64,000 bases of DNA from Candidatus Spechtbacteria bacterium (GCA_016188605.1 JACPHP010000015.1:18833-82832); one strand, 5' to 3'; shown: positions 5,210 to 59,440, counted from the first letter of the stretch. A program made the numbers and translations. The notes: a model not told the origin generated them from the letters alone.

Positions 5210-5214
5210 TCAAC

Positions 5215-38398: not shown

Positions 38399-38417
38399 CC
38401 TATTCTAATCATTCAAC

Positions 38418-46427: not shown

Positions 46428-47111
46428 CTATCCGTTAATATCTTTTTTAATCCCTTCCAAAATTTCGCGGGCTACTCCCTGGCCACCGAGGCCGAAGGCT
46501 AATCCGCTCGCCAAGGCAAGCATGGCAACAATGCCCATAAACAACGTGTTGACCATGGCTGTTGCAACGCCAAGCTGGTTTAATGCGGCTAGAATACCAA
46601 ATGCCCACACAGCCCAACGCGTCACCAAGCCCACAAAACGAGATGAGCCACCAAGTTCAGTTGCCTGTAATGCTGTGCGTGTAGCTTTCTCTAAGAAATC
46701 ACCGAGAATTGCCGCCACCACAATTACGAGAGCCGCGACTACTATATTAGGAATATAGAGCACTATTTGCTGCAAAAATGTTGCGACAGCAGTTAACCCC
46801 ATAATCTCTACCGCGGCCATAAAGAACGCGATGACGAAAAACCATTTCACCAGCATGCCGAGTAAAGAACTTATTTCAATCGTCATGCCTGCGCGATGAA
46901 GCATTTGCGTTACAGAAAGCTGGCTCATAAATTTATCCAGCTGCGCCATTTGCAAAAGGCGCGTTACAACCATACCAAAAGCGACCGCAATAATCCAACC
47001 TACAATAAATACAATGATTGCCCCGAGAAAACTCGGAACGAATTGCATAAAACCTTGCCAAATTTGCTGCAAGGATACAACTACTACTTCACTCCATTGT
47101 TGTACTAACAT
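46428..47111 (-). CDS. Membrane protein with repeated conserved TM helices (MscS-N-terminal-like 'TM helix' repeats)
   Basis: 227 aa, four-plus TM segments with repeated AxxLG-rich pattern. Family assignment tentative. Confidence 0.4.
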   Translation of the reverse strand: MLVQQWSEVVVVSLQQIWQGFMQFVPSFLGAIIVFIVGWIIAVAFGMVVTRLLQMAQLDKFMSQLSVTQMLHRAGMTIEISSLLGMLVKWFFVIAFFMAAVEIMGLTAVATFLQQIVLYIPNIVVAALVIVVAAILGDFLEKATRTALQATELGGSSRFVGLVTRWAVWAFGILAALNQLGVATAMVNTLFMGIVAMLALASGLAFGLGGQGVAREILEGIKKDING

Positions 47112-47301: not shown

Positions 47302-47808
47302 TTACGATAATCGTTTAACTGATGTATACTCGAGAACTGATTGCACTAACCACGCAAACGTAATCGCAATTACAATGCTACCGATAATATCAACCCCGTG
47401 GTGCACGCCAACGTAAATTCGTGAAAAACCTACTATAATTGTCAACGCCCATAGCGCAATGCTAACTTTTTTATTAAACGGCCAAAGGGCAGCTGCAATC
47501 GCAGCGCTAATCAGTGTGTGATCGGAGGGAAAACCATTATCCGCCACATGCGCAATAAGCGGAGTGAAGCCATCAGTTACGAACGGCCGCGGGTAATAAA
47601 AGAAAAATCCCAAGATTTTTGCCGCGAGATAGGTCAACGGCAAAGCCAGCACAGCAAAAACAATCATCCGCTTTTGCACGTCACGCTTTTGCAACATAAG
47701 ATATGCTAACGCGATACCAATAATGGCAATAAAAAGATACTTAGCAGATAAAATAAAGAATAGAGAAGCTATGTCCATAATATTGAAGTTCACGACCCAT
47801 ATTAGCAC
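47302..47808 (-). CDS. PAP2-family phosphatase (undecaprenyl-diphosphatase-like)
   Basis: YPRPF ... FPSDH ... SRIYVGVHHGVD signature triad of PAP2 acid phosphatases. Confidence 0.7.
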   Translation of the reverse strand: MLIWVVNFNIMDIASLFFILSAKYLFIAIIGIALAYLMLQKRDVQKRMIVFAVLALPLTYLAAKILGFFFYYPRPFVTDGFTPLIAHVADNGFPSDHTLISAAIAAALWPFNKKVSIALWALTIIVGFSRIYVGVHHGVDIIGSIVIAITFAWLVQSVLEYTSVKRLS

Positions 47809-48008
47809 GCGTTGAAGAAAGAAAAAAGGCCACCTACAAATAGAAAAACTCGCCTATGGCGAGTTTTTCTATTTGTCTGGTCAAGTCTAATACTCAAAAA
47901 ATTAACTACGCGAGGGAGTATGAAAAATGGTCGTTAAAATAGACAATATTTCGAATACTGCAAGAATCGGACTCCTCTCGCGATAATAAGCGTTAGCATT
48001 TATAGCTT

Positions 48009-48048
48009 TGGTGGACCATGGGAGAATCGAACTCCCATCTCCCGGATG
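48009..48048 (-). pseudogene. Partial duplicate of tRNA-Ala (3' 40 nt, anticodon loop through CCA) plus 12 nt of 3' flank
   Basis: tggtggaccatgggagaatcgaactcccatctcccggatg identical to 48127-48166. Shared flank atttatagcttt. Confidence 0.7.
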
Positions 48049-48126: not shown

Positions 48127-48200
48127 TGGTGGACCATGGGAGAATCGAACTCCCATCTCCCGGATGCAAACCGGGTGCTCTGCCACTAAGCTAATGGCCC
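48127..48200 (-). tRNA. tRNA-Ala (anticodon TGC), CCA encoded
   Basis: GGGCCATTAGCTTAGTGGCAGAGCACCCGGTTTGCATCCGGGAGATGGGAGTTCGATTCTCCCATGGTCCACCA. G3:U70 Ala identity pair present. Confidence 0.85.
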
Positions 48201-48278: not shown

Positions 48279-48313
48279 TTTCAGCCTGAGGCTGATCCGC
48301 CTCTGGCGGAAAA
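48279..48313. repeat. Twin-hairpin G+C-rich repeat (cagcc-tgag-gctg / ccgcc-tct-ggcgg), copy at the tRNA side of the foreign cassette
   Basis: ttcagcctgaggctgatccgcctctggcggaaaa. Inverted near-identical copy at 56162-56196. Related copies at 8281-8315, 56010-56030 and 56390-56415. Confidence 0.65.
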
Positions 48314-48377
48314 CCGCCTCGCTAAAGCGAGAGGCCAAACCTAAACTTTCCGACGAAAGCCAAGCAGTTGGCTTTCG

Positions 48378-48403
48378 TCCTCTGCCACTAAGCTAATGGC
48401 CCA
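48378..48403 (-). pseudogene. Partial duplicate of tRNA-Ala (5' 23 nt)
   Basis: ctctgccactaagctaatggcccaa identical to 48178-48203. Confidence 0.65.
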
Positions 48404-48519
48404 ATGCGCGCAAATTACAAAGCACAGAACACAAAAGCCAAACAAACCACAAAAGCACAAAATTACAAACACGAAACGTTTGGGATTTGTAATTTGTGTT
48501 TTGGAATTTACAAACCTAG

Positions 48520-48591
48520 TGGGCGCGGAAGGAGTCGAACCTTCCGCCTCTTTCTTATCAGGAAAGCGTTCTACCGCTGAACTACGCGCCC
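48520..48591 (-). tRNA. tRNA-Ile (anticodon GAT)
   Basis: GGGCGCGTAGTTCAGCGGTAGAACGCTTTCCTGATAAGAAAGAGGCGGAAGGTTCGACTCCTTCCGCGCCCA. Anticodon loop CTGATAA. Confidence 0.85.
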
Positions 48592-48711
48592 GCAATAAAG
48601 AATACAGAATCTAGAATACCGAATACAGGGACGGAATAAACTGCGATACTATCTTTTTTACAACAATAACCAATATGGCACAAGTACCACATATTTGTCA
48701 GGGTTCTGATA

Positions 48712-48739
48712 TTGACTTATAGTTTAATCGTTTTATAAT
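48712..48739 (+). promoter_or_regulatory. Near-consensus sigma70 promoter (TTGACT, 16 nt, TATAAT) for the 48822 gene
   Basis: Direct reading, followed by a leader with AAAGGAGGT SD 5 nt before GTG. Confidence 0.6.
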
Positions 48740-48821
48740 CACGACACTCTCTTGAACTGCACAGAAATGCAAACGAGAAGCTGTATTTTCACAAATTATA
48801 ACAATCGAAAGGAGGTATCTG

Positions 48822-50645
48822 GTGCTAACATCATTAGTTCCAGTCGAGTCATTACTCGACCCCGTTCTTGCTGCCGCAGTATGGCCTGAAAGTATTACAA
48901 GCAATGAAGTTTTCAAACAACAGCTTGAACGGCGCAGGGAGCTGATAAAACGCCTCGAAGACGTCATTTGCTCTCTGCCCCGGCCAGATATGCCTATCGG
49001 GACAGCTATTGATCTGGGGTATATCACCGAGGAACAAGTTGCGGCACTCTATGAATCTCTAAGCGATTTGCTGCAAGACCCGTACTACAAGCGCATTGTC
49101 TTCTATCTTCCATTTGAATTCTTGCCCAACAGAACGTGGGACCATTTCGGGGAAAAACTCCGACAGGTCGCTAGACTATTTAGGCAGGTATACATGGATG
49201 CTTGGTGGCATCTGCTTCTAGTGCAAGACGTACGCGCCAATTTCGTAGATGGCGACGTGCTTGAAGTAGGGCAGAGAGTCGGCGACTTGCCGCGAGTAGT
49301 GAAGGCGGCTCATCTCATACCCAAGCTCGTTGAAAACGGCTTGCTAGAGATTGAGGACGTCATATCTCTCATGGAAAAAGCCAACGATCAGGTGCTGAAA
49401 GATAGCATTGCCGATGCGCTCCCCGTTCTAGCAGATATGGGATTTATTCCAGATACAGAAGCTGACACAGAATCAGCTGAAGCAACACCAAAGCCGATTA
49501 CGCTTACATATGTTCGCAAAAAATTGGATAAAGCGTTCTCTAGAATAGATACTGAAGATTTCGGCAGTATCACGAAGGGTCGAAAAAATTGGCTTGTACA
49601 AAAAAAGAGGCAAGAAGCCATCGATGCCGCTGGAGAAGATATATGCACAGCAATCGTTCGAGGAGAGCTCTCTAATGAAATAACGGCGAGCTTTCTCGCT
49701 TACGGAGATTCTGCTATGCAGCGAGTGCTTGTCGAAGGAATTAGAGCGGCCATTGAGTCCGTCGCGCTAACTAACGTTAGCAGGGCGCACGCACTGTACG
49801 CTCAGTATAAAGAAACTTTGCTAGCACTTTGGGAGAGCGACGATCCTGATATCGGGGAAGCGCTATCCAAAACTTTCCGCCGGCTCCATTACCTCGGTAT
49901 TGTTGATGACCAACGGCTGTCGGAGTTAGGAATAGTCATTCCACGTCTCGCAGGACCTTTCTCTAAAAATCTTAGGTCAATGGGAAAGGACTTGCGCGAT
50001 ATAGAAACGATGGCCGCGTCTATCAAATGCAACAGCGAGCTGTCGCGGCTCATATACCCGGGGGTTCTCATGTACGGCTCGCGCATCAAGGGATACGGCG
50101 CGCAAAATTCTGATATTGACCTTGCCGTATTTGTGAGGCCGGGAACGCCTTTTGCTGGCAGGTCGGAGCTACAAAAACTACTTGGACAAACTTTCGCGCA
50201 TAATGCGATTCGCGGCCAAGTTGTTGAATTCTGGCTGGAAGAAAAGGGCGAGATACTTCGAATTCGTGACTTCAATAGTTCTGATGTATATCTGGGAGAA
50301 AGCTATTGGACACATGTCCTGTTTGGCGCCGTATGGATGGGCGGCGATGATACAATACGTGAGTTGTATGAAAAACTGCTGACTCCATATATGCGCGATG
50401 ACGGTAATATAATTTTTGGCCGCGGCGCAATAAGCATCTACTTGGAGGAAACAGAACGAGACACTCTACAGTACAGGTTGATGCATAAAGGATATGAACG
50501 ATTCTTCCCGCCATGCGGCGGCATACACACACCCCATTCAGATAGAATTAATGATAGTAGCATGTTCTGGGATTCGGGATACAGGCAACTTGCAACAATG
50601 CTGTTTGTAAGCAGAGTTTTTCTGCCGAATATCCCAGTTGTATAA
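48822..50645 (+). CDS. Large protein with C-terminal pol-beta-type nucleotidyltransferase domain (GS...DID minimal NTase core)
   Basis: 607 aa. LMYGSRIKGYGAQNSDIDLAVFV fits hG[GS]x9-13Dh[DE]h. ~400-aa helical N-terminal region of unknown type. Strong SD, GTG start. Confidence 0.5.
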   Translation: MLTSLVPVESLLDPVLAAAVWPESITSNEVFKQQLERRRELIKRLEDVICSLPRPDMPIGTAIDLGYITEEQVAALYESLSDLLQDPYYKRIVFYLPFEFLPNRTWDHFGEKLRQVARLFRQVYMDAWWHLLLVQDVRANFVDGDVLEVGQRVGDLPRVVKAAHLIPKLVENGLLEIEDVISLMEKANDQVLKDSIADALPVLADMGFIPDTEADTESAEATPKPITLTYVRKKLDKAFSRIDTEDFGSITKGRKNWLVQKKRQEAIDAAGEDICTAIVRGELSNEITASFLAYGDSAMQRVLVEGIRAAIESVALTNVSRAHALYAQYKETLLALWESDDPDIGEALSKTFRRLHYLGIVDDQRLSELGIVIPRLAGPFSKNLRSMGKDLRDIETMAASIKCNSELSRLIYPGVLMYGSRIKGYGAQNSDIDLAVFVRPGTPFAGRSELQKLLGQTFAHNAIRGQVVEFWLEEKGEILRIRDFNSSDVYLGESYWTHVLFGAVWMGGDDTIRELYEKLLTPYMRDDGNIIFGRGAISIYLEETERDTLQYRLMHKGYERFFPPCGGIHTPHSDRINDSSMFWDSGYRQLATMLFVSRVFLPNIPVV

Positions 50646-50648
50646 AAT

Positions 50649-50677
50649 AAAGCCGTTGGTTTCACCAACGGCTTTTG
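50649..50677 (+). terminator. Hairpin aaagccgttggt-ttca-ccaacggcttt followed by tg/taatt
   Basis: Immediately after the 48822-50645 stop, between convergent genes. Confidence 0.55.
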
Positions 50678-50746
50678 TAATTGAAGAAGACCACCCCGCA
50701 ACTGCAAGGTGGCCTCAATTTTATAGATTAAAGAACAAAAAACGAA

Positions 50747-51892
50747 TTAGTTACCGCTACGGCGGTGTTCAGTGCCAATACCGGTAAGCCGTTTACTTGC
50801 AGACGCGCTGGCGCTGAGCTGGTCCCAGGGAATCTGGGAGCCAAGCATGTACAGCGCGCCAAAGTACTGCAATTCTTCATTGCCGGCTGGCTGATCCTTG
50901 ACCCGCATGACCGCCAACACGAATCGAGTCAGGTTGGTCTCCAGCCGCGGATACGTGGCAGAAACCGCTACACCGAGCTGTCGAATCATCTGGTCACGGT
51001 TAGCGGCACCGATCAACGCTGGCAGACGGGTATTTTCCAGGGTTTCTTTGATCTTGGATGCGTCATAAGCGAGCGCAGCCGCGATCTGAACTCCCGTTCC
51101 CGCAAAAACCTTGTTTACAGAATCGGCCATTGCATCTGCTGCGTCACGCAGCCCGCCTGTATCCGGCGGCTGCATCATGCCCGAAGGCATAGCGCCACCA
51201 CCGCCGACCATCGCCATCATGGCATTCATCATAAGAGCAGGATTTGCTGCGCCCTGCACCCACGCATCCTGCCAGGATTTAAGCTGTCCATAGAAAGTCG
51301 TAATCGCTGGCCAAAGATGCTCATCAATGCGCTGAAAAAGCTGCTTCTTTCGCGCTTCAGTCACATACGAACCATCCAAACCGTCGATCGCCGCAAAGAT
51401 CTCAGCATAGCTGCGTCGCGTCATTTCCTTTCGAAGCTTAAAAAACTCCGGATCAACCTGCTCTTCGTTCGTATCCGCAAATCTCTCCATCAAGCCAGCG
51501 AGCACATCCGGGATACTGAAGAGGCCTGCCCGGTATGCCAGTGCCGCCCGAACTGCCGAAATAACAGTGGATTGATCAACCTTGAGGATTCCACCAGTTC
51601 GAAGCGCTTCCAGCCAAGAAGCATCGGTGGGCACTGCGGGAAGCACAGCATCAAAAGAAATGGCTCCCATTGTACTTACTGCGGGCGGCTCAGCCACTGG
51701 CTTAGCCGGTGCAAGCGCTTTGAGCAAATTCCTTGCCGGCAATACTTTCATGCCGACTCCGACGAGGTCTTGCTCTGTCAAACCAGCCAGATCTTCCACG
51801 GTCGTAGCACCAAGATCAGAAATAATCTTCTCAATCACTTCAGATGCAACGCCCATAGACTCAAGTTTGGCAGTTACTTCAGTGACTTCCAT
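50747..51892 (-). CDS. Hypothetical protein with N-terminal tandem helix-hairpin-helix-like segment
   Basis: GVASEVIEKIISDLGATTVEDLAGLTEQDLVGVGMKVLPARNLLKAL. SD AAAGGGG 8 nt upstream of ATG. Confidence 0.4.
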   Translation of the reverse strand: MEVTEVTAKLESMGVASEVIEKIISDLGATTVEDLAGLTEQDLVGVGMKVLPARNLLKALAPAKPVAEPPAVSTMGAISFDAVLPAVPTDASWLEALRTGGILKVDQSTVISAVRAALAYRAGLFSIPDVLAGLMERFADTNEEQVDPEFFKLRKEMTRRSYAEIFAAIDGLDGSYVTEARKKQLFQRIDEHLWPAITTFYGQLKSWQDAWVQGAANPALMMNAMMAMVGGGGAMPSGMMQPPDTGGLRDAADAMADSVNKVFAGTGVQIAAALAYDASKIKETLENTRLPALIGAANRDQMIRQLGVAVSATYPRLETNLTRFVLAVMRVKDQPAGNEELQYFGALYMLGSQIPWDQLSASASASKRLTGIGTEHRRSGN

Positions 51893-51914
51893 TTTCTTTA
51901 CCCCTTTCGCGGTT

Positions 51915-53300
51915 CTACCTGCACATCTTATCCCGCTCGGTACTTCCCAGCGAGATCATTCTAACTTGCACTCCCAGCTTTTCTCCAATTATACTGGCAC
52001 AAAACGAGTAAAGCTCGCTTGGTGTGGCGGGCGATGGAACTTTCAGGGTCGTAATTTCCGGCTTGCAGCGCGAAAGCTGTTTGCCGAGCGATTCCTGATA
52101 TTCCAACTGATTGTTATCCGTTCCCACACGGACTTTGATTGCGCCCGTGGGCGTAAAATATGTAGGATCGTCCGCGCCGAGATAACGGTCGCATATACGC
52201 CACTCTCCGTTAGCCACAATTTGATCGAACCATGTGACGGCCAGGCCATTGAATGCATTTGGGCCGCCGCAAACTTCTATAGCGTAACGAAGTAAAACGA
52301 GATCCAGCGCCCCTACGCGCACTTCTCCCTGATAGCGGTTGCTTTCTTTGTGACTGCCTGGAAGCAATCTTTCTGCCATCTCGGGATTGGCAGTAGGCAT
52401 CGGACCCGCACCGTGGCGAATTGCGTATGCTCGGAACACTCCGAAATTCACAATCTCTCCGTCGTAGCCAGCATCTATAAGCATCGCTTGCGTAAAGCAC
52501 GGCAATGTTCGAATGGCGCTTACGTGCGGATAGAAACCGTGAAAGTGATCGGTGATAACTCCGTGCGAGCTTTCAACTACAACCACACCGTCCCGAGCAA
52601 GGACTTCTCGCTCAAGATATTCATGGCCGACAATCTTAGCTCGCCGCGATACTTCTTCAAACCGTTCGGCAATATAGTCGAGGAAGCCGTCATCATAAAG
52701 AAGAGCAACTTCCTTTTGCATCGCCTCACGGTCGCTAGGCAAGAACTCGCCGCCAATAGTCTCGTTGAGATCGCTGCGTATTTGCTCTCGCACGCAAACA
52801 AGCAAATCTTTCAGATCGGGCCGCGACAAATCGCAGGCTCGAATCGTAAGATCCGGATACTGTTGCAAATAGCGATACGCTTCACCAACGCCTGTGCCAA
52901 TCGTGCCGCGAGGATTATTACCACGTGACATTTCTTTCAGGCGCGACGCAATTCCGTGATAAGGCGTGGCGCACAATGCCATTTCATCTACCGTCAGCAG
53001 ACCAAACGGATTGTGTATGCCGTGCTGATATCGAAGTGCGTCAGACTCATTAAGTAAACCTTCTGGAGAAACGATAAACCGAGCGGAGATATGCGTGTTA
53101 ATGCCTTCGAATGTGCCGCATCCCCACTGGCTGAAAGCAAAGCTCTCGCCACGCGAAGTGCGGACACCGTGGCTTCCCTGCGCGCCTCCGACTTTCACGA
53201 CGGTGTGGGCACGCATCATTGTTGCGATTTTGTGCACCACACCGCCCTTGCCGCCGTCACCAGGACCGAGGTCGGTGACGGTGTAGACTTTCTTGGTCAT
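51915..53300 (-). CDS. Divergent adenylosuccinate-synthetase (PurA)-like enzyme
   Basis: P-loop GPGDGGKGGVVHK (PurA GDEGKGK); VKVGGAQGSHGV (PurA GGHNAGHT); NPRGTIGTGVGEAY (PurA TTGRGIGPAY); ESSHGVITDHFHGFYPHVSA (PurA [21 protein letters not shown]); HGAGPMPT (PurA RVGAGPFPT). The aspartate-binding TTGRRRRTGW loop is replaced by SNRYQGEVRVG. ATG at 53300 with GAGGAAGGTGG SD. Confidence 0.6.
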   Translation of the reverse strand: MTKKVYTVTDLGPGDGGKGGVVHKIATMMRAHTVVKVGGAQGSHGVRTSRGESFAFSQWGCGTFEGINTHISARFIVSPEGLLNESDALRYQHGIHNPFGLLTVDEMALCATPYHGIASRLKEMSRGNNPRGTIGTGVGEAYRYLQQYPDLTIRACDLSRPDLKDLLVCVREQIRSDLNETIGGEFLPSDREAMQKEVALLYDDGFLDYIAERFEEVSRRAKIVGHEYLEREVLARDGVVVVESSHGVITDHFHGFYPHVSAIRTLPCFTQAMLIDAGYDGEIVNFGVFRAYAIRHGAGPMPTANPEMAERLLPGSHKESNRYQGEVRVGALDLVLLRYAIEVCGGPNAFNGLAVTWFDQIVANGEWRICDRYLGADDPTYFTPTGAIKVRVGTDNNQLEYQESLGKQLSRCKPEITTLKVPSPATPSELYSFCASIIGEKLGVQVRMISLGSTERDKMCR

Positions 53301-53310
53301 CGTCGCCACC

Positions 53311-53350
53311 TTCCTCGGTACGCCGAAGTCTCGCTTGGCGAGACTTCGGC
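53311..53350. promoter_or_regulatory. Perfect 17-bp-stem palindrome ggtacgccgaagtctcgc-ttgg-cgagacttcggcgtacc inside the cassette operon, abutting the PurA-like SD
   Basis: Direct reading. No T-run, so more likely a processing/stability or attenuator element than a terminator. Confidence 0.4.
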
Positions 53351-53379
53351 GTACCTTTCAATCTTGATTTGGTAACTGG

Positions 53380-54537
53380 CTAGAGCCAGTTGGGTCCGTC
53401 GTCGGAGTCCTCGTCTTCGGAATCTCCAGAAGTAGCCGAATCAATTTCACTAGGATCGACCGGCCAGAGGTCGGTCTTTTCCCTGAAAAGATCGCCGGCC
53501 TTCGGAAGCTTATCGAAGTTCGGAGAAAGCATCTGAGCTCCGAGAGGAATATGCGCAACTGCGTGAATAATCTGACGCGCACTGAATTCTGAAACATTAT
53601 GCTCCGTAAGAAATTCCAAAGCAGACCCCAGGCTCAGCACGCCCTCCATGAGACCGATGATTATTGCCTTTACACAGTGCAGGTTGTTCGTACCTTCAGG
53701 AAGCATAACGAAATGACCAGCTCCATACAAATCGCTCCACTGATCTGCAACATCCCGACGATTTCCAACCTGCAAAAAGAAGGCATGCGCCTTGGTCTGT
53801 AGATCCCTGACTACTTGCGCGGTGTTAGGCAGTTTTCCATTACTGAAGTCATAACCATTTTCTTTGGCATGCTCCAGTACGTCATCTCCGTAAATCTTCT
53901 TCAGCCAACGCGGATCGATAGTTTCAACGATCGGCTCGTCAGAGATCGTGAAGTGATAGTACTTCAAGCCCCATCGGTTAATCGCTGCATTAGTCAAGTA
54001 CACAGCGCCGAAAAGACCGAACTGTGGATCTTCCTTGCCGTTACCTTGACCCCTACGGCCAGGCACTAAATGAGTCATCTGGGAAGCAATTTTCTCGTCC
54101 ATCTCAAATTGAGTACGACATAGCACAGGCACGTCTTCTCCATCTTCAACGTCGTTGAATATGGCAGTTGCAATCTGAACGTCATATCGACCTAAAATAG
54201 GACGACTGCCGCTGGTCAGCATCTCGTAAGAACTAGGCAAGACATCAAATGCTGTATCTACGTTGCCCCCCATAGAACCGGTTGTATCTAGCAAATCTTC
54301 TTCAGCCATAGGAATACCGCAAGTCAGGACCCATAAGTTACCGCGCTTCTCAAAACGCGGCAGAGATCGACGAATGGGCCCGAGATGAGCAGGTCCTTTC
54401 GGATCCACCAGCGGATCTAGACCTTGTCCTTGGTGCATTCGCTCTTCAGCACCGCTGGTAGCTTTCTTGGTTCCATTAGACGTAGCGCTATAACGAACTC
54501 CGGTATAACCAGACCTTGAAAATGTATTCTTCCCCAT
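53380..54537 (-). CDS. Hypothetical protein with vWA-like (MIDAS DxTxS) segment and acidic C-terminal tail
   Basis: LLDTTGSMGG MIDAS-like motif. C-terminal SGDSEDEDSDDGPNWL. SD AAAGGGG upstream. Confidence 0.4.
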   Translation of the reverse strand: MGKNTFSRSGYTGVRYSATSNGTKKATSGAEERMHQGQGLDPLVDPKGPAHLGPIRRSLPRFEKRGNLWVLTCGIPMAEEDLLDTTGSMGGNVDTAFDVLPSSYEMLTSGSRPILGRYDVQIATAIFNDVEDGEDVPVLCRTQFEMDEKIASQMTHLVPGRRGQGNGKEDPQFGLFGAVYLTNAAINRWGLKYYHFTISDEPIVETIDPRWLKKIYGDDVLEHAKENGYDFSNGKLPNTAQVVRDLQTKAHAFFLQVGNRRDVADQWSDLYGAGHFVMLPEGTNNLHCVKAIIIGLMEGVLSLGSALEFLTEHNVSEFSARQIIHAVAHIPLGAQMLSPNFDKLPKAGDLFREKTDLWPVDPSEIDSATSGDSEDEDSDDGPNWL

Positions 54538-54567
54538 ATTATTCGCCCCTTTCTTTGCTATACACGC

Positions 54568-55380
54568 CTACAATGATTCCGTAGTGAAAGGATGATACTT
54601 GCGCTCCCAGAGCAAATCGATTAGTTCATAGAACGCCAAGTGCGCTCTTTCCGCGTTGCTCTCGCTACCGCGGGCTAGACGCCAAAGATAGTCTGTGTAC
54701 CTACGAAAAGCCTCGTCGCCGTCATTTGGGATTGTACCCGTTTTTAGGTCGCCTCCCAGCGCAACAACAACCGATTGCGCCGCTTGAGAAATCTCTTGGC
54801 GCCTAACCTCTACGGGAACTGTGTCGGTATGTATCTGCGCGAATGACCATTCAAAAATCACCACATAGTGTTCCTTCGGCTCAATCACTATATTCTTCCC
54901 GCTCAACAAGTTAACCGAGATTCCTTCGTTGTGCAAGAACGCAAGCAACTTGAGAAGTTTGCCCATAATCCATGCGCTAGTGCGCAAATCAACCCGCAGG
55001 CGGTCTTTTGCCGTGATGTTAATCAGCGGCACCATATCGCCTACATTCTCTACATTCCTAAACGCAAAAACATTAACTTGACGCCCGCCCTGCTCAGTAC
55101 AGATGAAGCTATCCATAAGCTCGGGGAAACCAAGCTGGTAGTTAAGAGGTTCATCGGGACGAGCGTACTCCACTTCGAGCTCTTCAGCACGGCGCTGCAG
55201 TTCTTTAAGAATATAGGCGGCACGCTGAAGCGCGCCGTTGTCCTTAGTTTCGTTAGCAATCTGCAAAATATATTCGCGCTTTACTCCTTCCTGCGTACAT
55301 AGGTAAAGCCGATATTTGCCGGCTTCTGCTACCTTTTTGCCGACTTGATAAACGTGATGACCATTGCGTATAGTGATCAC
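54568..55380 (-). CDS. Protein-kinase-like fold protein with degenerate catalytic motifs (atypical kinase or pseudokinase)
   Basis: LHNEGISVNLLSGKNIVIEP resembles the HRDLKPENI catalytic loop with D->N. DFG replaced by IFEWSF. Likely GTG start at 55380, preceded by SD GAAAGGAGGG. The track ORF extends to 55536 through the leader. Confidence 0.4.
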   Translation of the reverse strand: MITIRNGHHVYQVGKKVAEAGKYRLYLCTQEGVKREYILQIANETKDNGALQRAAYILKELQRRAEELEVEYARPDEPLNYQLGFPELMDSFICTEQGGRQVNVFAFRNVENVGDMVPLINITAKDRLRVDLRTSAWIMGKLLKLLAFLHNEGISVNLLSGKNIVIEPKEHYVVIFEWSFAQIHTDTVPVEVRRQEISQAAQSVVVALGGDLKTGTIPNDGDEAFRRYTDYLWRLARGSESNAERAHLAFYELIDLLWERKYHPFTTESL

Positions 55381-55391
55381 CGAATTTCCCT

Positions 55392-55668
55392 CCTTTCGTA
55401 CTTGTATTGTAAAGGGACACAATAAACTAGTGCTGATAGTATTGTGTATAACCTGTCTTGTCAAGAGCGGCGTAAGTAACCCCTCACACCCCTCGTGAGT
55501 CATTGCGAGCCCCAAGGGGGCGTGGCCCGCCAGCAACGCCTTAAGCGTAGCTTTGGCGGGCTGGCAATCCCGCTCGTATGTGGTAACGAGATTGCTTCAC
55601 GCTACGCTCGCAATGACGTATAATAAGATTTTGATATAGGGGGTGTGGGGGGTTACCATAGCGACGCA
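55392..55668 (-). promoter_or_regulatory. Structured ~280-nt 5' leader of the cassette operon (candidate cis-regulatory RNA)
   Basis: 12-nt perfect inverted repeat GTCATTGCGAGC ... GCTCGCAATGAC enclosing ~100 nt of nested G+C-rich stems (agcgtagc/gctacgct, cccgcc/ggcggg). No match to a riboswitch class I can name. Confidence 0.35.
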
Positions 55669-55678
55669 TTATATGGCA

Positions 55679-55706
55679 TGATTCCTAATGCTCAATATAT
55701 TTTAAA
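55679..55706 (-). promoter_or_regulatory. sigma70-like promoter (TTGAGC, 16 nt, TATAAT) reading into the cassette operon
   Basis: Direct reading on the minus strand. Confidence 0.5.
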
Positions 55707-55796
55707 AGAACTTTATTTAAGATTAGCAAATGGTGATAATAGTGTCAATAGTACACTATTAACAGGTTAAAATTTTATGAATTATTTATGCGGTTT

Positions 55797-55838
55797 TGAA
55801 TTTCACTTATCATACACGGCCGTGTATGATAAGTGAAA
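55797..55838. terminator. Perfect 20-bp-arm palindrome atttcacttatcatacacgg-ccgtgtatgataagtgaaat
   Basis: One of a run of hairpins (also 55920-55945 and 55960-56000) downstream of the 16S 3' end. Confidence 0.5.
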
Positions 55839-56161
55839 TTCAAAATGTTAACAAAATAATCCACCTATGATAAAGCAGAGGCAATAAGTATCACAAACAA
55901 AACAAACTAGTTCTTCGGGGACGGCAGAAATGCCGTCCCTTTTTCATACAATGCAAAACCCTCTGCCTTAGGCAGAGGGTTTTGCATAACTGACAGAATC
56001 ATTGCGTAAAGAAAATTTCTTATCCGCCTCAGGCGGAACATTGAACATCTAAGAGTTGCTCCAAATTGGTAACTCTTTTCTTGCGAAAAGAGATTTTAGT
56101 CTCAGACATTTGAAGGCTTTGAGACTAACGCCTTGCCTACCTTTAGCTAATCATACAGAAG

Positions 56162-56196
56162 CTTTTCCGCCAAAGGCGGATCAGCCTCCGGCTGAA
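56162..56196. repeat. Twin-hairpin G+C-rich repeat, inverted copy at the 16S side of the foreign cassette
   Basis: Reverse complement reads ttcagccggaggctgatccgcctttggcggaaaagc. 33/35 match to 48279-48313. Confidence 0.65.
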
Positions 56197-56344
56197 GCGA
56201 AGGCGGGCAGATATTAAAGCACGAATTCGATGCTTCAATATCGTCGACTCCCGATATTGTATCAAGCAAAAGCTTAATAAAAAATCAAGAAAAAATGATC
56301 CATCCACAGCTTCCGCTACGGATGCCTTGTTCATGTTTACCTGT

Positions 56345-56869: not shown

Positions 56870-57893
56870 GGATCAATGAGCATATCATCGTCCCACGCCA
56901 CCGGACGAACGGTTTTACCGTATCCTGGCGGCTTCCATCGAATGCTTCTTGCCAAGAAAACGCATCTGTTCACGCAATCGCACCATTTCGCTGAAACCCT
57001 TATCTGTAAGGTGTTCTTTATTGCGATACATAGTGACAATTCTCTTAAACAGTATGTATGTTTTTGCTTTCTTTGCTTGAAGATGATTTGCATCTAAAAA
57101 TGGAAAAAGATACGCTACCAAATCTTTTGAACTGGTAATTTTATACTTCGCGTGGGGGTACCATCCGTACCTCTCATACGAGCAATCATATATTTTCCCA
57201 CAACCAATTGTCACAAGAATTCGTTCGAGGATTTCACGATCATCTGCGCGGAGTTCGATTTCAAACTCGGCACGTATTTCGACAGAGCGAGGATGTTTAT
57301 AATCTCGTTCTTTTCGTTTTCCAACGCTTACCGCAAACGATCCTTCACCATCAATGAATCCTGCGACATATTGAGGAGGCAATTTTTTTCGATGAATTCG
57401 CTCCTTTCCAATCGGACCCTTCAAAGATAAATTTCTTTGGAAAGGTTTACGACTGGTACTACGAGCTCTGCTGACTTCTTGCATGGAATAAATAAAAATT
57501 ACTTTCTATCCTTCTATAATCCCAAGGTTATTTTACCGTGGAAATTAATACCAAACAAGATCTCCCCCGGTCATCTATAAAACAATTTGAAAACATCTCG
57601 ATCACCCTATACGTAGCAATAAATATACACAAAGTGACTTCCCCATGTACTCGAAGGGTGGTCTTATTACTACGCCTCAACAGTGATTCAAGCTATCTTC
57701 TGCTACCCTCGATTGTAGTTGTAACTATAATCGAGACCAAGTTTAACTTGATTTCGCCCTTCATCCTGGGGGTCACCCCTCGCAGGACTGCGATTTTGCT
57801 TCAAAGCGCTTTGTTCGCTTCGGTTGGACTTCTCACCAACAATAAAGTGGAAAGTCACCAACTCGTTCCATAAACTGCAGGGCACCCGAGTAC
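56870..57893 (-). mobile_element. Intron in 16S at ~S1391-1396 (after CTTGTAC) carrying a LAGLIDADG ORF
   Basis: Exon discontinuity CTTGTAC | ~1 kb | ACCGCCCGTCAC. No canonical S-element seen, so intron subclass is uncertain. Confidence 0.5.
56915..57484 (-). CDS. LAGLIDADG homing endonuclease (single-motif)
   Basis: YVAGFIDGEGSF motif. 189 aa. Confidence 0.8.
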   Translation of the reverse strand: MQEVSRARSTSRKPFQRNLSLKGPIGKERIHRKKLPPQYVAGFIDGEGSFAVSVGKRKERDYKHPRSVEIRAEFEIELRADDREILERILVTIGCGKIYDCSYERYGWYPHAKYKITSSKDLVAYLFPFLDANHLQAKKAKTYILFKRIVTMYRNKEHLTDKGFSEMVRLREQMRFLGKKHSMEAARIR

Positions 57894-58357
57894 AAGACTC
57901 GGGAACGTATTCACCGCGCCATAGCTGATGCGCGATTACTAGCGATTCCGGCTTCATGAGGTCGAGTTGCAGACCTCAATCCGAACTGGGGCTAATTTTG
58001 ATGGGATTTGCTCCGCCTTACGGCTTGGCGTCCCTCTGTAATTAGCCATTGTATCATGCGTGTTGCCCAGGGCATCAAAGGGTCATGCTGATTTGGCGTC
58101 ATCCCCACCTTCCTCCCCGTTATGCGGGGCAGTATCGTGTGACACATATAACACACAATAGGGGTTGCGTTTGTTACCGGACTTAACCGAGCGCCTCACG
58201 GCACAAACTGACGACAACCATGCAACACCTGCCCAATTGTCCTTGTGAGACATTCTCCCTTTCGGGAGAACTTCAACTGGGTGTCAAGCCCTGGTGAGGT
58301 TCCTCGTTTGTCATCGAATTGAACCGCATGATCCACCGCTTGTGCGAGTCCCCGTCT

Positions 58358-58389
<32 letters not shown>

Positions 58390-58796
58390 ACCCAGGCGGA
58401 ATACTTAACGCGTTAGCTTCGCCACGTGTAGGGTCGACACTACACACAGCTAGTATTCATCGTTTACAGCGTGGAATACTGGGGTATCTAATCCCATTCT
58501 CTCCCCACGCTTTCGTCCCTCAGCGTCAGAGTCATGCCAGCTGATTGCCTTCGCCTTTGGTGTTCCCCATGATATCAACGGATTTCACTCCTACACCATG
58601 AGTTCCATCAGCCTCTCATGCTCTCTAGTTTTGACGTTTCCTGCGCAGATTCAAGGTTAAGCCCTGAAATTTAACACTGGACTATCAAAACCGCCTACGG
58701 ACGCTTTACGCCCAATAATTCCGGATAACGCTCGGGGCCCTCGTATTACCGCCGCTGCTGGCACGAGGTTAGCGGCCCCTTATTCCTGAAGTACAA

Positions 58797-58940
58797 TCAA
58801 ACCGCTCCTCGCTACGCTCGGAGCACACCGATAAACGCAGATACGAACACGGATATACGCGGATATAATAATCCGTGTAAATCCATTTTCTTATCCGTGT
58901 GAATCCGTGTACGTTCCGAACGCAGTGAGGAACGGTCTTT
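58797..58940 (-). repeat. IVS-like insertion (family-A-related) in the 16S ~450-480 variable loop
   Basis: ~140 nt absent from E. coli 16S between ...CTGAAGTAC and GAAAAGCAGTTTACAACCCGAAGG. Shares cgaacacggatatac / ccgtgt words and a ccgaacgcagtgaggaac end with the 23S copies. Confidence 0.6.
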
Positions 58941-59400: not shown

Positions 59401-59408
59401 GCCTTATC

Positions 59409-59440
<32 letters not shown>

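Follow-up and report, generated by a model that had tools for sequence, protein, structure and literature searches.

What do the five protein-coding genes that lie within the rRNA operon of a Candidatus Spechtbacteria bacterium do together, and where did they come from? The DNA analysed (the window) is a stretch of 64,000 nucleotides in which the rRNA operon is on the minus strand throughout, with the 16S upstream of the five genes and tRNA-Ile, tRNA-Ala, 23S and 5S downstream. An earlier note on this DNA had described a foreign cassette between the 16S and the tRNA/23S block, in which one plus-strand gene converges on four minus-strand genes. Both the position, in the 16S/tRNA-Ile spacer, and the layout were borne out, and the five genes, running from 48822 to 55380, are real. 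The 16S end placed at 57844 was wrong: the true 3' end is near 56290, and the 16S has two introns. The mechanical open reading frame of gene E extends to 55536, and its start was set at 55380 according to its SD motif and its homologues.

48127-48200, minus strand: tRNA-Ala, downstream of the module
48519-48591, minus strand: tRNA-Ile, downstream of the module
48822-50645, plus strand: gene A, 607 aa, GTG start at 48822
50747-51892, minus strand: gene B, 381 aa
51915-53309, minus strand: gene C, 464 aa
53380-54537, minus strand: gene D, 385 aa
54568-55380, minus strand: gene E, 270 aa

All five genes carry an SD motif 6-12 nt 5' of the start (GAAAGGAGG for gene A, GAAAGGGG shared by genes B and D, GAGGAAG for gene C and GAAAGGAGGG for gene E). 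A comparable motif was found in just 2-3 of the 29 other long ORFs of the window, broadly as claimed before for host genes. The 3' end of the host 16S reads GGATCATTTTTTCTT and has no CCUCC, i.e. it is without an anti-SD sequence, a trait reported for about half of Parcubacteria (PMC9297842). The G+C of the five genes is 0.48-0.54; most host ORFs in the window have 0.35-0.49, the richest 0.499. The elevated G+C that had been claimed is therefore modest, being clear for genes B (0.54) and C (0.53), which exceed every other long ORF in the window, while genes A, D and E reach only the upper edge of its range.

The module to which the five genes belong is widely shared. About 80 genomes, most of them of Patescibacteria, have this gene order between flanks that are unrelated, and nearly all of 79 loci read E-D-C-[B1, B2 or none]-<A, with gene A convergent to the operon in 63 loci. 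The fourth gene is a variable slot (B1, B2 or none), B being missing from about 8 CPR loci. The earlier note would have given up the set if its genes never co-occurred elsewhere; they co-occur strongly. The position in the 16S-tRNA-Ile spacer is not shared by other genomes, rRNA lying within 10 kb of the module at only 1 of about 80 loci, and would be without functional meaning. No published description of the module was found in the literature. The kinase-vWA-PurA-like core (E-D-C) is also present in Bxz1-type mycobacteriophages and in Saccharimonadaceae chromosomes, and in Rhizobium jumbo phages at least as a D-C pair (genes EVB95_018 and EVB95_019). In phage LRRHood, gp253 resembles a kinase and has an HPD tripeptide close to the N-terminus; gp254 is 24% identical to the gene D product over 256 aa, LDVTGS MIDAS motif included, and gp256 is PurA-like. 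Among the 1142 homologues of gp254, 58-77% identical, are those of Saccharimonadaceae, and the four gp254-homologue contexts that were looked up (L087-L090) all read Pkinase-vWA-Adenylsucc_synt. The phage versions lack genes B and A, and no phage homologue of gene A was found. The nearest relatives of gene D are 65-72% identical and labelled Moranbacteria, Daviesbacteria and Saccharibacteria; the Paceibacterota copies are 42-50% identical. The SD motifs on five genes in a host with an anti-SD-less 16S, the nearest relatives in other CPR phyla and the elevated G+C make the proposed foreign origin, and hence horizontal acquisition of the module in this genome, plausible. For a recent transfer, the retained SD motifs are hard to square with relatives only 70-80% identical.

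Gene C belongs to the core of the module. It matches Pfam PF00709 (Adenylsucc_synt) over its full length (8.5e-37), and its best phage-family match is phrog_1211 (4.5e-46). It reaches 83-91 bits against PurA equivalog models with cut-offs of about 400, 4-5 fold short (82.6 bits for TIGR00184, cut-off 395), and 21 bits against the PurZ NCBIfam NF038379, cut-off 300. The divergent PurA-fold enzyme that had been predicted is thus upheld. We compared the residues of 69 CPR sequences using E. coli PurA numbering. The family retains G12, D13, K16, H41, D333 and S414, and the P-loop GDxGKG is present in gene C. In all 69 sequences, other residues stand in place of two of the four IMP 5'-phosphate ligands (T129 to I/V and R143 to E/D). 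The aspartate site is rebuilt at all four ligands, again in 69/69 (T300 to Y/W, T301 to Q, R303 deleted, R305 to V). Further changes are Q224 to H, K331 to W and an invariant V273 to H. Since the IMP-phosphate and aspartate ligands are lost and the GTP/phosphotransfer residues are kept, C appears to be neither PurA nor PurZ; judged by these residues, it is a predicted PurA-fold GTP-dependent enzyme and not an adenylosuccinate synthetase. Retention of the fold and of the GTP and catalytic residues makes oxygen phosphorylation followed by amine displacement plausible for C. The 6-substituted purine nucleotide chemistry suggested before is doubtful, because T129 and R143 of the IMP 5'-phosphate site and T300, T301, R303 and R305 of the aspartate site are all replaced.

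It is very unlikely, then, that the locus represents ordinary purine salvage, with C acting as a genuine adenylosuccinate synthetase on the IMP to AMP branch, next to four genes that have nothing to do with it. C does share with PurA (EC 6.3.4.4) the full-length fold, the P-loop, the catalytic Asp13/His41 and the guanine-specificity Asp333/Ser414, CPR bacteria depend on salvage, and phage homologues are publicly annotated 'PurA-like adenylosuccinate synthetase'. However, the scores fall far short of every PurA equivalog cut-off, the phosphate ligands, Q224 and the aspartate site are changed, and no purB is adjacent. Unlike a housekeeping purA, the C gene is strictly linked to D and E across CPR and phages, always 3' of the vWA gene and the kinase-like gene. 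A pathway of phage origin for 2-aminoadenine (Z base), as with PurZ, or for another DNA base replacement is already close to refuted. PurZ, the succino-amino-deoxyadenylate synthase of Z-genome phages, is also a PurA fold repurposed by phages; it belongs to the same PHROG as C, phrog_1211, whose name '2-aminooxy adenylosuccinate synthetase' derives from PurZ, and C too has homologues in phages. Yet PurZ retains aspartate as nitrogen donor and the ligands it needs for it are missing from C, the PurZ model is matched far below its cut-off, no gene of the DatZ, MazZ or DpoZ type that partners PurZ occurs in the module or its flanks, and the module is chromosomal in cellular genomes.

The domain predictions for the other four genes also held. 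The AF2 model of gene D (pLDDT 91, pTM 0.90) has a vWA fold, and its top Foldseek matches in the PDB are integrin beta I-like domains and vWF A3 (E 1e-6 to 1e-4). The MIDAS residues D84, T86, S88 and D200 are invariant in 82 sequences. The protein ends in an acidic disordered tail with a Trp-Leu terminus, W384 being present in 79/82 sequences; it has no Pfam match, and its homologues form 520 clusters. Gene E matches phrog_3043 'kinase' (1.4e-11), and its family profile matches CK2-alpha (E 2e-7). Among 72 family sequences, none has the Asp of the HRD position, 42 have Gln and 26 have Lys at the beta3 Lys position, 60 keep the DFG Asp and 68 the Asn; gene E here has Gln and Glu at the beta3 and DFG positions, respectively. 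E has a protein-kinase fold with degenerate catalytic residues, as a pseudokinase or an atypical kinase. In gene A, an uncharacterised N-terminal region of about 400 aa precedes a pol-beta-type nucleotidyltransferase core at about 412-480. In 26 of 28 homologues, Polbeta/NTP_transf_2 matches reach the Pfam cut-offs or fall just short of them, and G419, S420, D431 and D433 do not vary. A weak PDB match to the small hypothetical protein HI0073 includes the GS...DxD stretch, and there are faint poly(A)-polymerase-like matches. The same core is carried by MntA/HI0073 minimal NTases (HEPN-MNT antitoxins), but A scores only 25.7 bits against the MntA-family NCBIfam (cut-off 60), has 600 aa with a conserved C-terminal extension in addition to the N-terminal region, and lacks a HEPN partner. 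Gene B has an N-terminal (HhH)2/SAM-like domain, as the HhH prediction had it, followed by a Pro/Ala linker and an all-alpha domain of about 300 aa with a Met/Gly/Pro-rich loop; this N-terminus, in both B and B2, resembles RNAP alpha-CTD, the RAD51 N-domain and XPF.

The sequences upstream of the two transcription units provide a further clue.

48712-48739, plus strand: promoter-like site of gene A, TTGACT-16-TATAAT, 11/12, the best of the region
55668-55695, minus strand: promoter-like site of the E-D-C-B operon, TTGAGC-16-TATAAT, 10/12, the best minus-strand site
55739-55759, no strand assigned: 21-bp perfect palindrome ATAGTGTCAATAGTACACTAT, NrtR-type operator, core GT-N7-AC

The gene A site, 83 nt upstream of the GTG at 48822, is exactly the sigma70 promoter reported before; the one reported for the operon (55679-55706) overlaps the best site, 55695 to 55668, but is about 11 nt off. 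A single promoter-like site is weak evidence, because the region has 23 of them against 10.7 ± 3.5 expected. It counts against the operator that the palindrome does not cover the best -35 element but stands some 45 nt upstream of it. NrtR motifs are 21-bp palindromes with a GT-N7-AC core (PMC2330246), and TAGTGT-N7-ACACTA (55740-55758), upstream of the operon, is the sole exact match in the 64 kb, where 0 are expected. Over all loci (1.45 Mb), exact matches to the box number 37, as against 2 in shuffled sequence. It also stands 5' of pncA/pncB and nadD/nadE in L026, L043, L046, L049 and L087, and in L002 5' of the gene for PRPP synthetase, a known NrtR target class (PMC2330246). The commonest families among 146 flanking ORFs were NrtR_WHD/NUDIX (9), NAD_synthase (4), Isochorismatase (3), CN_hydrolase (3) and ADP_ribosyl_GH (2). 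Of about 84 loci, 17 have nrtR no more than 10 kb from the module, 9 have pncB, 8 nadE, 8 pncA and 5 nadD. Several Saccharibacteria have the module in the midst of their NAD salvage genes, flanked by pncB-pncA on one side and by nrtR-nadE-nadD on the other, and adjoining nrtR. The 64-kb window contains neither nrtR nor any NAD gene, which leaves a single operator-like palindrome as the basis for regulation here.

Several observations speak against the NAD link. As defined, the operator core occurs in the 400 nt upstream of E at just 16 of 67 loci as an exact match and at 25 with at most one mismatch, and at most loci the nearest 10 kb hold no NAD gene. When genomes are very small, genes may also be neighbours by chance or by shared Saccharibacteria ancestry. 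Phage copies are found beside polynucleotide kinase/phosphatase and RlaP-type genes, by which RNA repair is equally indicated. The module resembles the NrtR regulon of the Preiss-Handler cluster (pncA, pncB, nadD, nadE, prs) in that the box 5' of it is identical to the one 5' of pncA/pncB, nadD/nadE and prs in related genomes, but none of its five proteins is in a known NAD biosynthetic family; the searchable published NrtR regulons do not list its genes. NARP pathways rebuild NAD+ from its breakdown products, and ADP-ribose, which feeds NARP1, also induces NrtR regulons. Like the module core, NARP1 (Adps + Namat), NARP2 (Nampt + Nmnat) and NARP3 (PnuC + NadR-like) are compact phage-borne sets, and in a Rhizobium phage a PRTase and an NMNAT/NUDIX gene lie 3-5 kb upstream of the vWA-PurA-like pair. 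Unlike the NARPs, the module has no Prs-like, Nampt-like, Nmnat or NadR protein, and NAD rebuilding by it is hypothesis only. The operator, the NAD link, the variable fourth gene and the phage triad were all missed in the earlier note.

Our preferred reading, to which we give a probability of about 0.45, is that of a conserved, horizontally acquired Patescibacteria accessory module, the operon E-D-C-B plus convergent A, with an ADP-ribose/NAD-responsive nucleotide-ligase function. The module would belong to the NrtR regulon, and ADP-ribose, an NAD breakdown product, would free the repressor and turn it on. With GTP, C may place a phosphate on an oxygen of a nucleotide related to NAD or ADP-ribose rather than of IMP, the phosphate then being swapped for a nitrogen nucleophile other than aspartate; we infer this substrate from the lost residues only. 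Such chemistry would rebuild or remodel the NAD/adenine-nucleotide pool. The MIDAS of D may bind a carboxylate or phosphate of a partner or substrate and its acidic W-L tail may dock, with E a putative non-catalytic nucleotide-binding scaffold, so that D and E would form the regulatory or substrate-presenting part of a complex. B, in the variable slot, and A are probable CPR-specific accessories. The module would have landed in the 16S-tRNA-Ile spacer by horizontal acquisition. It counts against the NAD reading that nothing accounts for a metabolic enzyme requiring such partners as a vWA protein, a pseudokinase, a SAM-like protein and an NTase of 600 aa.

The NTase, vWA and kinase-like proteins together are what suggested a conflict or defence module in the earlier note. 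In an anti-phage or inter-bacterial system, detection of the invader would fall to the vWA protein and the pseudokinase, a nucleotide acting as signal or poison would be made or destroyed by the PurA-like enzyme and the NTase, and an ADP-ribose-sensing Nudix regulator would switch the system on. vWA, pseudokinase and pol-beta NTase domains are common in predicted conflict systems, the distribution is patchy and accessory, and the similarity pattern departs from taxonomy. The TerY-P triad likewise pairs a vWA protein with a Ser/Thr kinase, although here the kinase is degenerate, the conserved enzymatic partner is a PurA-fold protein, and PP2C phosphatase, ADP-ribosylglycohydrolase and Ter proteins are lacking. 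NrtR-like Nudix-HTH regulators and vWA 'chaperones' are predicted in ADP-ribose-processing immune systems, and in the Nudix/WYL-regulated ADP-ribosylglycohydrolase systems predicted by Aravind and co-workers an ADP-ribose-sensing Nudix-HTH regulator stands over a system with a vWA protein (PMC9503650). We nevertheless consider this explanation unlikely. PADLOC models match none of B, C, D and E, and A matches PDC-S09 NTase models just at E 4e-4 to 0.04 on a 30-residue NTase motif; the flanks in about 80 genomes hold housekeeping and NAD genes and no defence islands; lytic phages encode the core triad; the operator is identical to that of pncA/pncB and nadD/nadE; and effector-type domains (nuclease, TIR, SIR2, pore, protease) are lacking. 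Distinctly unlikely is an RNA repair or base-modification module, in which C would activate a base carbonyl oxygen in tRNA or rRNA with GTP for replacement by an amine, nucleic acid binding would be the part of the (HhH)2 protein, and the NTase would serve to add or repair a 3' end. Lysidine and agmatidine synthetases deal with the carbonyl oxygen of C34 in the manner proposed for C. Loss of the 5'-phosphate pocket suits a base within a polymer, and the nature of A and of the B and B2 N-termini fits. Phage copies lie near a polynucleotide kinase (LRRHood gp250) or HAD_PNKP, R2K and RlaP genes, L090 has a 2',5'-RNA-ligase-family gene, NADAR and NUDIX close by, and the module here adjoins tRNA and rRNA genes. 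The last point holds in this genome only, however, and B and A are missing in phages, B also in some CPR loci. No conserved RNA ligase, RtcB, Hen1 or anticodon-nuclease partner occurs, and the NrtR operator and the NAD-cluster position are left without account.

Hairpin elements were also located in the region.

48280-48313, no strand assigned: twin hairpin, left copy, CAGCC-N3-GGCTG AT CCGCC-N3-GGCGG
50649-50675, no strand assigned: terminator-like hairpin, 12-bp stem with 6 G-C pairs, then a T-rich tail (minus strand)
53317-53355, minus strand: perfect hairpin in the D-C spacer, 18-bp stem, ending just 5' of the gene C SD
56163-56196, no strand assigned: twin hairpin, right inverted copy, in the 16S 3' trailer

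The inverted repeat formed by the twin hairpins is real: its 34 nt are 94% complementary with differences confined to the hairpin loops, and it is the sole such pair in the window (0 expected). The two arms are not the termini of a cassette, as had been thought. No transposase or integrase is present. The left arm has tRNA-Ala on one side and a 28-nt copy of the tRNA-Ala 5' part on the other, and since it lies between tRNA-Ala and tRNA-Ile, the supposed bracket encloses tRNA-Ile. The right arm lies between the mature 16S 3' end (about 56290) and the processing-stem arm at 56038-56071, and the single hairpin CCGCC-N3-GGCGG is a dispersed family with 6 copies in the window. The twin hairpins are probably not part of the module. 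The terminator-like hairpin lies between the stops of the convergent genes A (50645) and B (50747), and the D-C spacer hairpin, seen at this locus, may serve mRNA processing, stability or translational coupling.

The window belongs to a Candidatus Spechtbacteria bacterium (Patescibacteria/CPR). Its rRNA operon runs on the minus strand in the order 16S, tRNA-Ile, tRNA-Ala, 23S and 5S, and five long open reading frames (ORFs), A to E, are situated between its 16S and tRNA-Ile genes.

Genes A to E and the neighbouring genes of the rRNA operon
54568-55380, minus: gene E, long ORF, kinase fold
53380-54537, minus: gene D, long ORF, vWA protein
51915-53309, minus: gene C, long ORF, PurA-like protein
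50747-51892, minus: gene B, long ORF, (HhH)2/SAM-like protein
48822-50645, plus: gene A, long ORF, pol-beta nucleotidyltransferase (NTase) protein
48519-48591, minus: tRNA-Ile
48127-48200, minus: tRNA-Ala
45770 down to 39731, minus: 23S, interrupted
38414-38525, minus: 5S

Because the gaps E-D, D-C and C-B are just 30, 70 and 22 nt, E, D, C and B are taken as one operon. Gene A converges on it, and a hairpin with a 12-bp stem (50649-50675) lies between the stop codons of A and B. D and the HhH protein B are 100% identical to NCBI entries HYV65_03330 and HYV65_03320, respectively; an exact-protein lookup of C gave no match, probably owing to a start-codon difference. An earlier note on this DNA had placed a promoter ahead of each transcription unit. 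The plus-strand site at 48712-48739 was recovered exactly, as TTGACT-16-TATAAT with 11 of 12 consensus matches. On the minus strand, where the note had named 55679-55706, the best site runs from 55695 to 55668 (10 of 12 matches), overlapping that position without being identical to it. The note was right about the raised G+C, which is 0.48-0.54 in the five genes versus 0.35-0.50 in the other long ORFs of the window, B and C being the richest ORFs of all. It was also right about the ribosome-binding sites. A purine-rich GGAGG, GAGG or GGGG motif precedes all five starts by 6-12 nt, and a comparable Shine-Dalgarno (SD) motif was found in just 2-3 of the 29 other long ORFs.

The SD motifs bear on the origin of the module once the 3' end of the 16S gene is correctly placed. 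The gene consists of three exons between 56290 and 59454 on the minus strand; the full-length Rfam hit (57844-59454) forces its 3' end into intron 1.

Structure of the 16S gene
about 57889, minus: end of exon 1, ...CTTGTAC
following exon 1, about 1 kb, minus: intron 1, at a decoding-centre position (about E. coli 1392), carrying a LAGLIDADG ORF at 56915-57484 (Pfam 7.5e-18)
about 56866-56772, minus: exon 2, ACCGCCCGTCAC...GAAGTCGT
56771-56341, about 430 nt, minus: intron 2, group-I-like (RF00028, 35 bits, sub-threshold), after GAAGUCGU (about E. coli 1506)
about 56340-56290, minus: exon 3, reading AACAAGGCATCCGTAGCGGAAGCTGTGGATGGATCATTTTTTCTT
56038-56071 and 59531-59564: processing stem, a 34-nt inverted repeat, 85% complementary, flanking the whole 16S as expected of a pre-16S stem

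Aligned with the E. coli 3' domain, for which a partly verified reference sequence was used, the three exons fit throughout. The 3' end (56290-56310, minus) reads GGATCATTTTTTCTT, a U-rich sequence in place of the anti-SD CCUCC. Loss of the anti-SD motif is reported for about half of Parcubacteria (PMC9297842). Most leaders of the host ORFs are AT-rich and without an SD motif, as follows from a 16S without anti-SD. The five genes thus bear SD motifs that cannot pair with the host ribosome, which argues for an SD-using donor and is the strongest single argument for such an origin. Elsewhere in the window, the sole other long ORF with a strong SD (AAGGAGGG) is at 60628-61647 (minus, 339 aa, no Pfam match), and it may be another acquired gene.

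Homologues of the module proteins are numerous. D and B gave 520 and 502 homologue clusters, the named ones nearly all from CPR lineages (Moran-, Davies-, Falkow-, Uhr- and Zambryskibacteria, Paceibacterota and Saccharibacteria). Four contexts on long contigs have the order E (about 270 aa), D (about 385), C (about 460), B (about 390) and A reversed (about 600-630), and their flanks are wholly different from one another. A D-profile scan of one genome per GTDB species returned 79 loci, a count that underestimates prevalence and comes from a biased sample since the scan used two short peptide patterns. About 10 of the 79 are labelled non-CPR (uncultured Gammaproteobacteria, Omnitrophota, Bdellovibrionales), the labels being taken as given. 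In tblastn and HMM searches with the five proteins, start codons in other loci being chosen automatically, E-D-C followed by A recurred in almost all loci that were long enough, which answers the question raised in the note of whether the gene set co-occurs elsewhere. The fourth position varies: it holds a protein of the type found here (B1) in about 55 loci, a second type (B2) in 10 and nothing in about 8. B2, about 330 aa long and encoded between C and A (loci L022, L027, L034, L048, L054, L061, L068, L069, L072 and L073), has a B1-like (HhH)2/SAM-like N-domain and a Met-rich stretch, a C-domain unrelated to that of B1, and an Arg-rich tail (...RGPRRxExMPRRRR...L). The closest D proteins, 65-72% identical, are labelled Moranbacteria, Daviesbacteria and Saccharibacteria, and Paceibacterota-labelled copies are 42-50% identical. 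By these identities the similarity of D does not track taxonomy, and this pattern, the mismatch of SD and anti-SD and the raised G+C together support horizontal acquisition.

C matches Pfam PF00709 (E 8.5e-37) with its residues 17-458 on profile positions 8-412 of 416, a full-length PurA fold, and the phage family phrog_1211 at 4.5e-46. Its scores are below the PurA equivalog cut-offs (TIGR00184, 82.6 versus 395.55 bits; PRK01117, 90.8 versus 402 bits) and below the PurZ cut-off (NF038379, 21.4 versus 300 bits). Residues were compared in an alignment of 69 CPR sequences, two phage homologues and E. coli PurA, whose sequence, the numbering reference, is only partly verified, the displayed parts agreeing with tool output. 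The P-loop is conserved (G12, D13, G15, K16, G17), and the GTP-site and catalytic residues G12, D13, K16, H41, D333 and S414 are kept in 61-69 of the 69 CPR sequences and in both phage homologues. The retention of the P-loop, H41, D333 and S414 indicates that the GTP-dependent phosphotransfer machinery is intact. The ligands of the IMP 5'-phosphate are replaced (N38 by Q, T129 by I or V, T239 by S, and R143 of the partner subunit by E, D or G), as are those of L-aspartate (T300 by Y or W, T301 by Q, R305 by V, with R303 deleted), so both substrate pockets have been rebuilt. V273 is His in 69 of 69 sequences, Q224 is His in CPR and K331 is Trp. C thus shares with PurA the fold and the GTP and catalytic residues and differs from it in model scores and in the ligands of both substrates. 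From PurZ it is set apart by its score and by the absence of datZ/mazZ/dpoZ-type domains from the module and the flanks examined. Judged from conserved residues, C is a PurA-fold enzyme that depends on GTP and has new substrate pockets. It would add a third functional branch to the fold, beside PurA and PurZ, and is a direct target for biochemistry. A gene of this type is easily annotated purA, so that the conversion of IMP to AMP may be wrongly ascribed to CPR bacteria and phages in metabolic reconstructions.

Profile and structure matches support the folds that the earlier note had predicted, PurA-like for C, vWA with a MIDAS for D, a degenerate kinase for E and a pol-beta NTase for A. D had no match in Pfam, vWA models included, and its AF2 model (pLDDT 91) has a vWA domain fold matched by Foldseek to integrin beta I-like domains and vWF A3 (E 1e-6 to 9e-5, probability 1.00). 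The MIDAS is of a DxTxS variant, its D84, T86, S88 and D200 being invariant in 82 of 82 sequences, and is predicted to bind metal; an acidic disordered tail ends with a conserved Trp-Leu. The kinase fold of E is seen in its family profile (CK2-alpha, E 2e-7; phrog_3043, 1.4e-11). The HRD Asp is conserved in none of 72 sequences, the beta3 Lys position is Gln in 42 and Lys in 26 (Gln40 here), and the DFG Asp is Asp in 60 (Glu177 here), leaving the metal-binding Asn as the only near-invariant one. With the fold of a Hanks-type protein kinase and without its catalytic residues, E is predicted not to be an active one. In B, a Pro/Ala linker follows the N-terminal domain and leads to an all-alpha domain with a Met/Gly/Pro-rich loop, for which no match was found in PDB, Pfam or a viral structure library. 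Sequence-profile searches of PDB returned noise or a weak SAM-domain match for D and B, and only the NTase motif for A. That motif, hG[GS]-x9-13-Dh[DE]h, is invariant in 28 sequences (G419-S420...D431-I-D433), 26 of which match PF18765. The NTase core is flanked by an N-terminal region of about 400 residues without an assigned family and by a conserved C-terminal extension. Against the MntA model NF047752, A scored 25.7 bits (cut-off 60). In MntA-HepT the MNT protein is small and beside a HEPN toxin, whereas A has 607 aa and no HEPN gene adjacent to it.

The core E-D-C is also carried by phages. The best annotated relatives of C are the 'PurA-like adenylosuccinate synthetase' proteins of more than 200 Bxz1-type (cluster C) mycobacteriophages, and E matches the 'serine/threonine kinase' of the same type of phage. 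In the mycobacteriophage LRRHood, the gene order is gp253 (kinase-like), gp254 (D-like), gp255 (a small protein) and gp256 (PurA-like). gp254 is 24% identical to D over 256 residues, the LDVTGS MIDAS motif included. gp253 has an HPD tripeptide near its N-terminus, which, read off the alignment alone, could be the mark of a DnaJ-type J domain. Rhizobium jumbo phages have a D-like gene directly ahead of the PurA gene; their EVB95_014 and EVB95_016 (Met-rich) were considered as counterparts of E or B and rejected at an hhalign probability below 1%. No phage homologue of A or B was found by tblastn in 50,697 phage records. gp254 has 1142 homologues, many 58-77% identical, on contigs that include Saccharimonadaceae/Saccharibacteria labels, one 'Acidimicrobiia' and one phage-like contig of 167 kb. 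All four of the contexts examined (L087-L090) have the order Pkinase (weak), vWA, Adenylsucc_synt. There are accordingly two versions of the module, a three-gene form in phages and some Saccharibacteria, and the five-gene form found here, which has a shorter pseudokinase and in addition B and A. Cultured Saccharibacteria live on Actinobacteria. The vWA proteins of Bxz1-type mycobacteriophage (LRRHood 4683-5738) and those encoded on Saccharimonadaceae chromosomes (L087 8001-9056) are 70-77% identical, which suggests a recent exchange between phages of Actinobacteria and bacteria with cultured relatives on Actinobacteria. This identity and the presence of the three-gene core in lytic phages of Mycobacterium and Rhizobium point to a tool common to very different parasites.

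A link to NAD metabolism emerged from the flanking genes. In a Pfam scan of 146 ORFs within 4.5 kb of the module in about 40 loci, the commonest families were NrtR_WHD, AraR_C and NUDIX, nine each, the domains of NrtR regulators. NAD_synthase (4), Isochorismatase (3), CN_hydrolase (3) and ADP_ribosyl_GH (2) were also found; the Isochorismatase matches are PncA-type, and CN_hydrolase is the glutaminase domain of NadE. Within 10 kb of the module in about 84 loci, tblastn seeds located nrtR 17 times, pncB 9, nadE 8, pncA 8 and nadD 5. In five Saccharibacteria loci, four of the five-gene form (L026, L043, L046, L049) and one of the three-gene form (L087), the module lies between pncB-pncA and nrtR-nadE-nadD. 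A palindrome, TAGTGT-N7-ACACTA, recurs in the upstream regions. Its core AGTGT-N7-ACACT has 37 exact matches in 1.45 Mb of loci versus 2 in a shuffle, and it occurs within 400 nt upstream of E in 16 of 67 loci exactly and in 25 of 67 allowing one mismatch, counts made on the same loci from which the box was defined, a circularity that the shuffle and the published motif class mitigate and do not remove. The copies are mostly 110-240 nt from the start codon and often overlap a TTGACA. In the same five Saccharibacteria loci the box stands beside pncA/pncB, beside the module and between nadE and nadD, with nrtR adjacent, and in L002 it is ahead of a PRPP synthetase gene. NrtR operators are 21-bp palindromes with a GT-N7-AC core, NrtR leaves the DNA upon ADP-ribose, and prs is a known target (PMC2330246). 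A perfect copy, ATAGTGTCAATAGTACACTAT, occupies 55739-55759 in the window, which has no second match in its 64 kb (0 expected); the -35 element of the best promoter of the operon follows about 45 nt downstream. Of the marks of an NrtR regulon, the operator motif is present here and in related genomes and the adjacent nrtR only in related genomes, no nrtR or NAD gene being found within the 64-kb window. By its motif, the box at 55739-55759 is a predicted NrtR-type operator.

On evidence that is computational throughout, we read the whole as an ADP-ribose/NAD-responsive nucleotide-ligase module acquired horizontally, with a probability of about 0.45. The operon would be de-repressed when ADP-ribose builds up, i.e. 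while NAD is consumed or destroyed. C would then phosphorylate an oxygen on an NAD- or ADP-ribose-related nucleotide; with the phosphate pocket lost, its acceptor is presumably not a nucleoside 5'-monophosphate. A nitrogen nucleophile other than aspartate would displace the phosphate in a site lined by the new His, Gln and aromatic residues. Since the genes for D and E always come directly before that for C and E has degenerate catalytic residues, the two are taken as a non-catalytic pair, which may present the substrate to C or regulate it: the MIDAS of D could bind an acidic or phosphorylated ligand, the acidic W-L tail could dock, and the pseudokinase E could bind a nucleotide. B, a variable slot whose N-domain may oligomerise or bind nucleic acid, and the NTase A would be CPR-specific additions. 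Each specific chemistry that might be proposed, a one-step conversion of ADP-ribose and nicotinamide to NAD+ for example, is improbable by itself. Equally speculative is a broader proposal in which the triad E-D-C is an ADP-ribose-induced enzyme complex serving the NAD and adenine-nucleotide economy of obligate parasites. Here C would use GTP to activate an oxygen, either on ADP-ribose or on some other precursor or breakdown product of NAD, and then install a nitrogen base or amine in one step, for instance giving NAD+ from ADP-ribose and nicotinamide, and the triad would have been exchanged between episymbiotic Patescibacteria and phages exploiting the same hosts. Patescibacteria, which account for much of the diversity of bacteria, live on other cells; they synthesise next to nothing themselves and have genomes of about 1 Mb. 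That a 7-kb module is retained in genomes of this size under a predicted NAD regulator implies that it must matter for obtaining or protecting nucleotides and cofactors.

The earlier note had pointed to a possible defence or conflict system. The patchy, horizontally moving distribution and the domain repertoire fit this, and Nudix-HTH regulators with vWA proteins are predicted in ADP-ribose-processing immune systems (PMC9503650). We consider it unlikely, however, as in PADLOC-DB A only weakly matches candidate PDC-S09 NTase models and B, C, D and E match nothing, the flanks are not defence islands, there is no effector domain, and the core is carried by lytic phages. RNA repair or base modification would account for the loss of the phosphate pocket, for the NTase and the (HhH)2 domain, and for the genes of polynucleotide-kinase and RlaP type near the phage copies; it leaves the NrtR box unexplained and is hard to reconcile with phage forms that are missing B and A, which makes it a doubtful reading. 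That C is an ordinary PurA is contradicted by the residue analysis and the model scores and is very improbable; the same evidence speaks against PurZ, for which the chance is close to nil. The known NAD+ reconstitution pathways NARP1-3 use Adps (Prs-like) with Namat, Nampt with Nmnat, or PnuC with a NadR-like protein, and profile searches found none of these among the five proteins. In open-access papers and preprints we found neither a description of a PurA-like/vWA/kinase module in CPR or phages nor an NrtR regulon listing these genes. The module thus lies outside every described kind of system, although its parts belong to known superfamilies. If the NAD-salvage role is true, the module would do a known job in a new way. 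The contest between host and invader over NAD+ is currently under active study, and the module adds a candidate to it.

The inverted twin hairpin described in the earlier note is real: two 34-nt copies, 48280-48313 and 56163-56196, are 94% complementary and form the sole such pair in the window. The right copy is within the 16S 3' trailer and the left between tRNA-Ala and tRNA-Ile. The note had described the pair as bracketing the cassette; a reading as cassette ends did not hold. tRNA-Ile is enclosed, no transposase, integrase or recombinase was found, and the single hairpin CCGCC-N3-GGCGG, with loops of 3 nt, occurs in 6 copies in the window versus 0.02 expected. On these grounds the repeats are read as copies of a dispersed hairpin element, and transposon ends were rejected. 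An RNA stem looping out the cassette was likewise rejected, since tRNA-Ile is inside, the two arms fold individually and the single hairpin also occurs elsewhere. On non-systematic inspection, the twin hairpins were no evident common feature of other module loci. A functional meaning of the rRNA-operon position was also discarded; rRNA is within 10 kb in just 1 of about 80 loci, so the position is peculiar to this genome.

Several other features of the window deserve mention. At 8295-8417, a hairpin identical to one twin-hairpin half (CCGCCTCTGGCGG) precedes a tandem repeat with 2.9 copies of a 34-nt unit (93% identity). Two partial copies of tRNA-Ala resemble scars left at the tRNA gene by integration or rearrangement: 54 nt of the 3' half and trailer (47995-48048, 98% identical, 118 nt downstream of tRNA-Ala) and 28 nt of the 5' part (48377-48404, 96% identical, 200 nt upstream). 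The left twin hairpin sits between the 28-nt copy and the intact tRNA-Ala. A mechanosensitive-channel-like gene (46428-47111) and a PAP2 phosphatase gene (47302-47808) separate tRNA-Ala from 23S and so break the rRNA operon at a second place. Across 39058-42901, several insertions split the 23S, with LAGLIDADG endonuclease ORFs at 39058-39537, 40694-41344 and 42032-42901 and a group I intron at 39875-40311. A perfect 52-bp palindrome (26 + 26 nt) at 55794-55845, between the 16S trailer and the NrtR-type box, may terminate or insulate 16S transcription or serve as a binding site for a protein. Next to 5S, about 1 kb (36980-38000) has 66.7% G+C in a genome of 44% G+C. Both strands have overlapping ORFs there, none with a Pfam match, and the stretch resembles a foreign insert or is possibly an assembly chimera. 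At 36925-36964 (plus), TCTCCCGATCGGGAGACCTTGATCACCTCCTTTCT comprises a hairpin and then a string identical to a canonical 16S 3' end with anti-SD, which is odd as the genome's own 16S has none; the opposite strand reads as a perfect SD (AAGGAGGTGATC) with no long ORF behind it.
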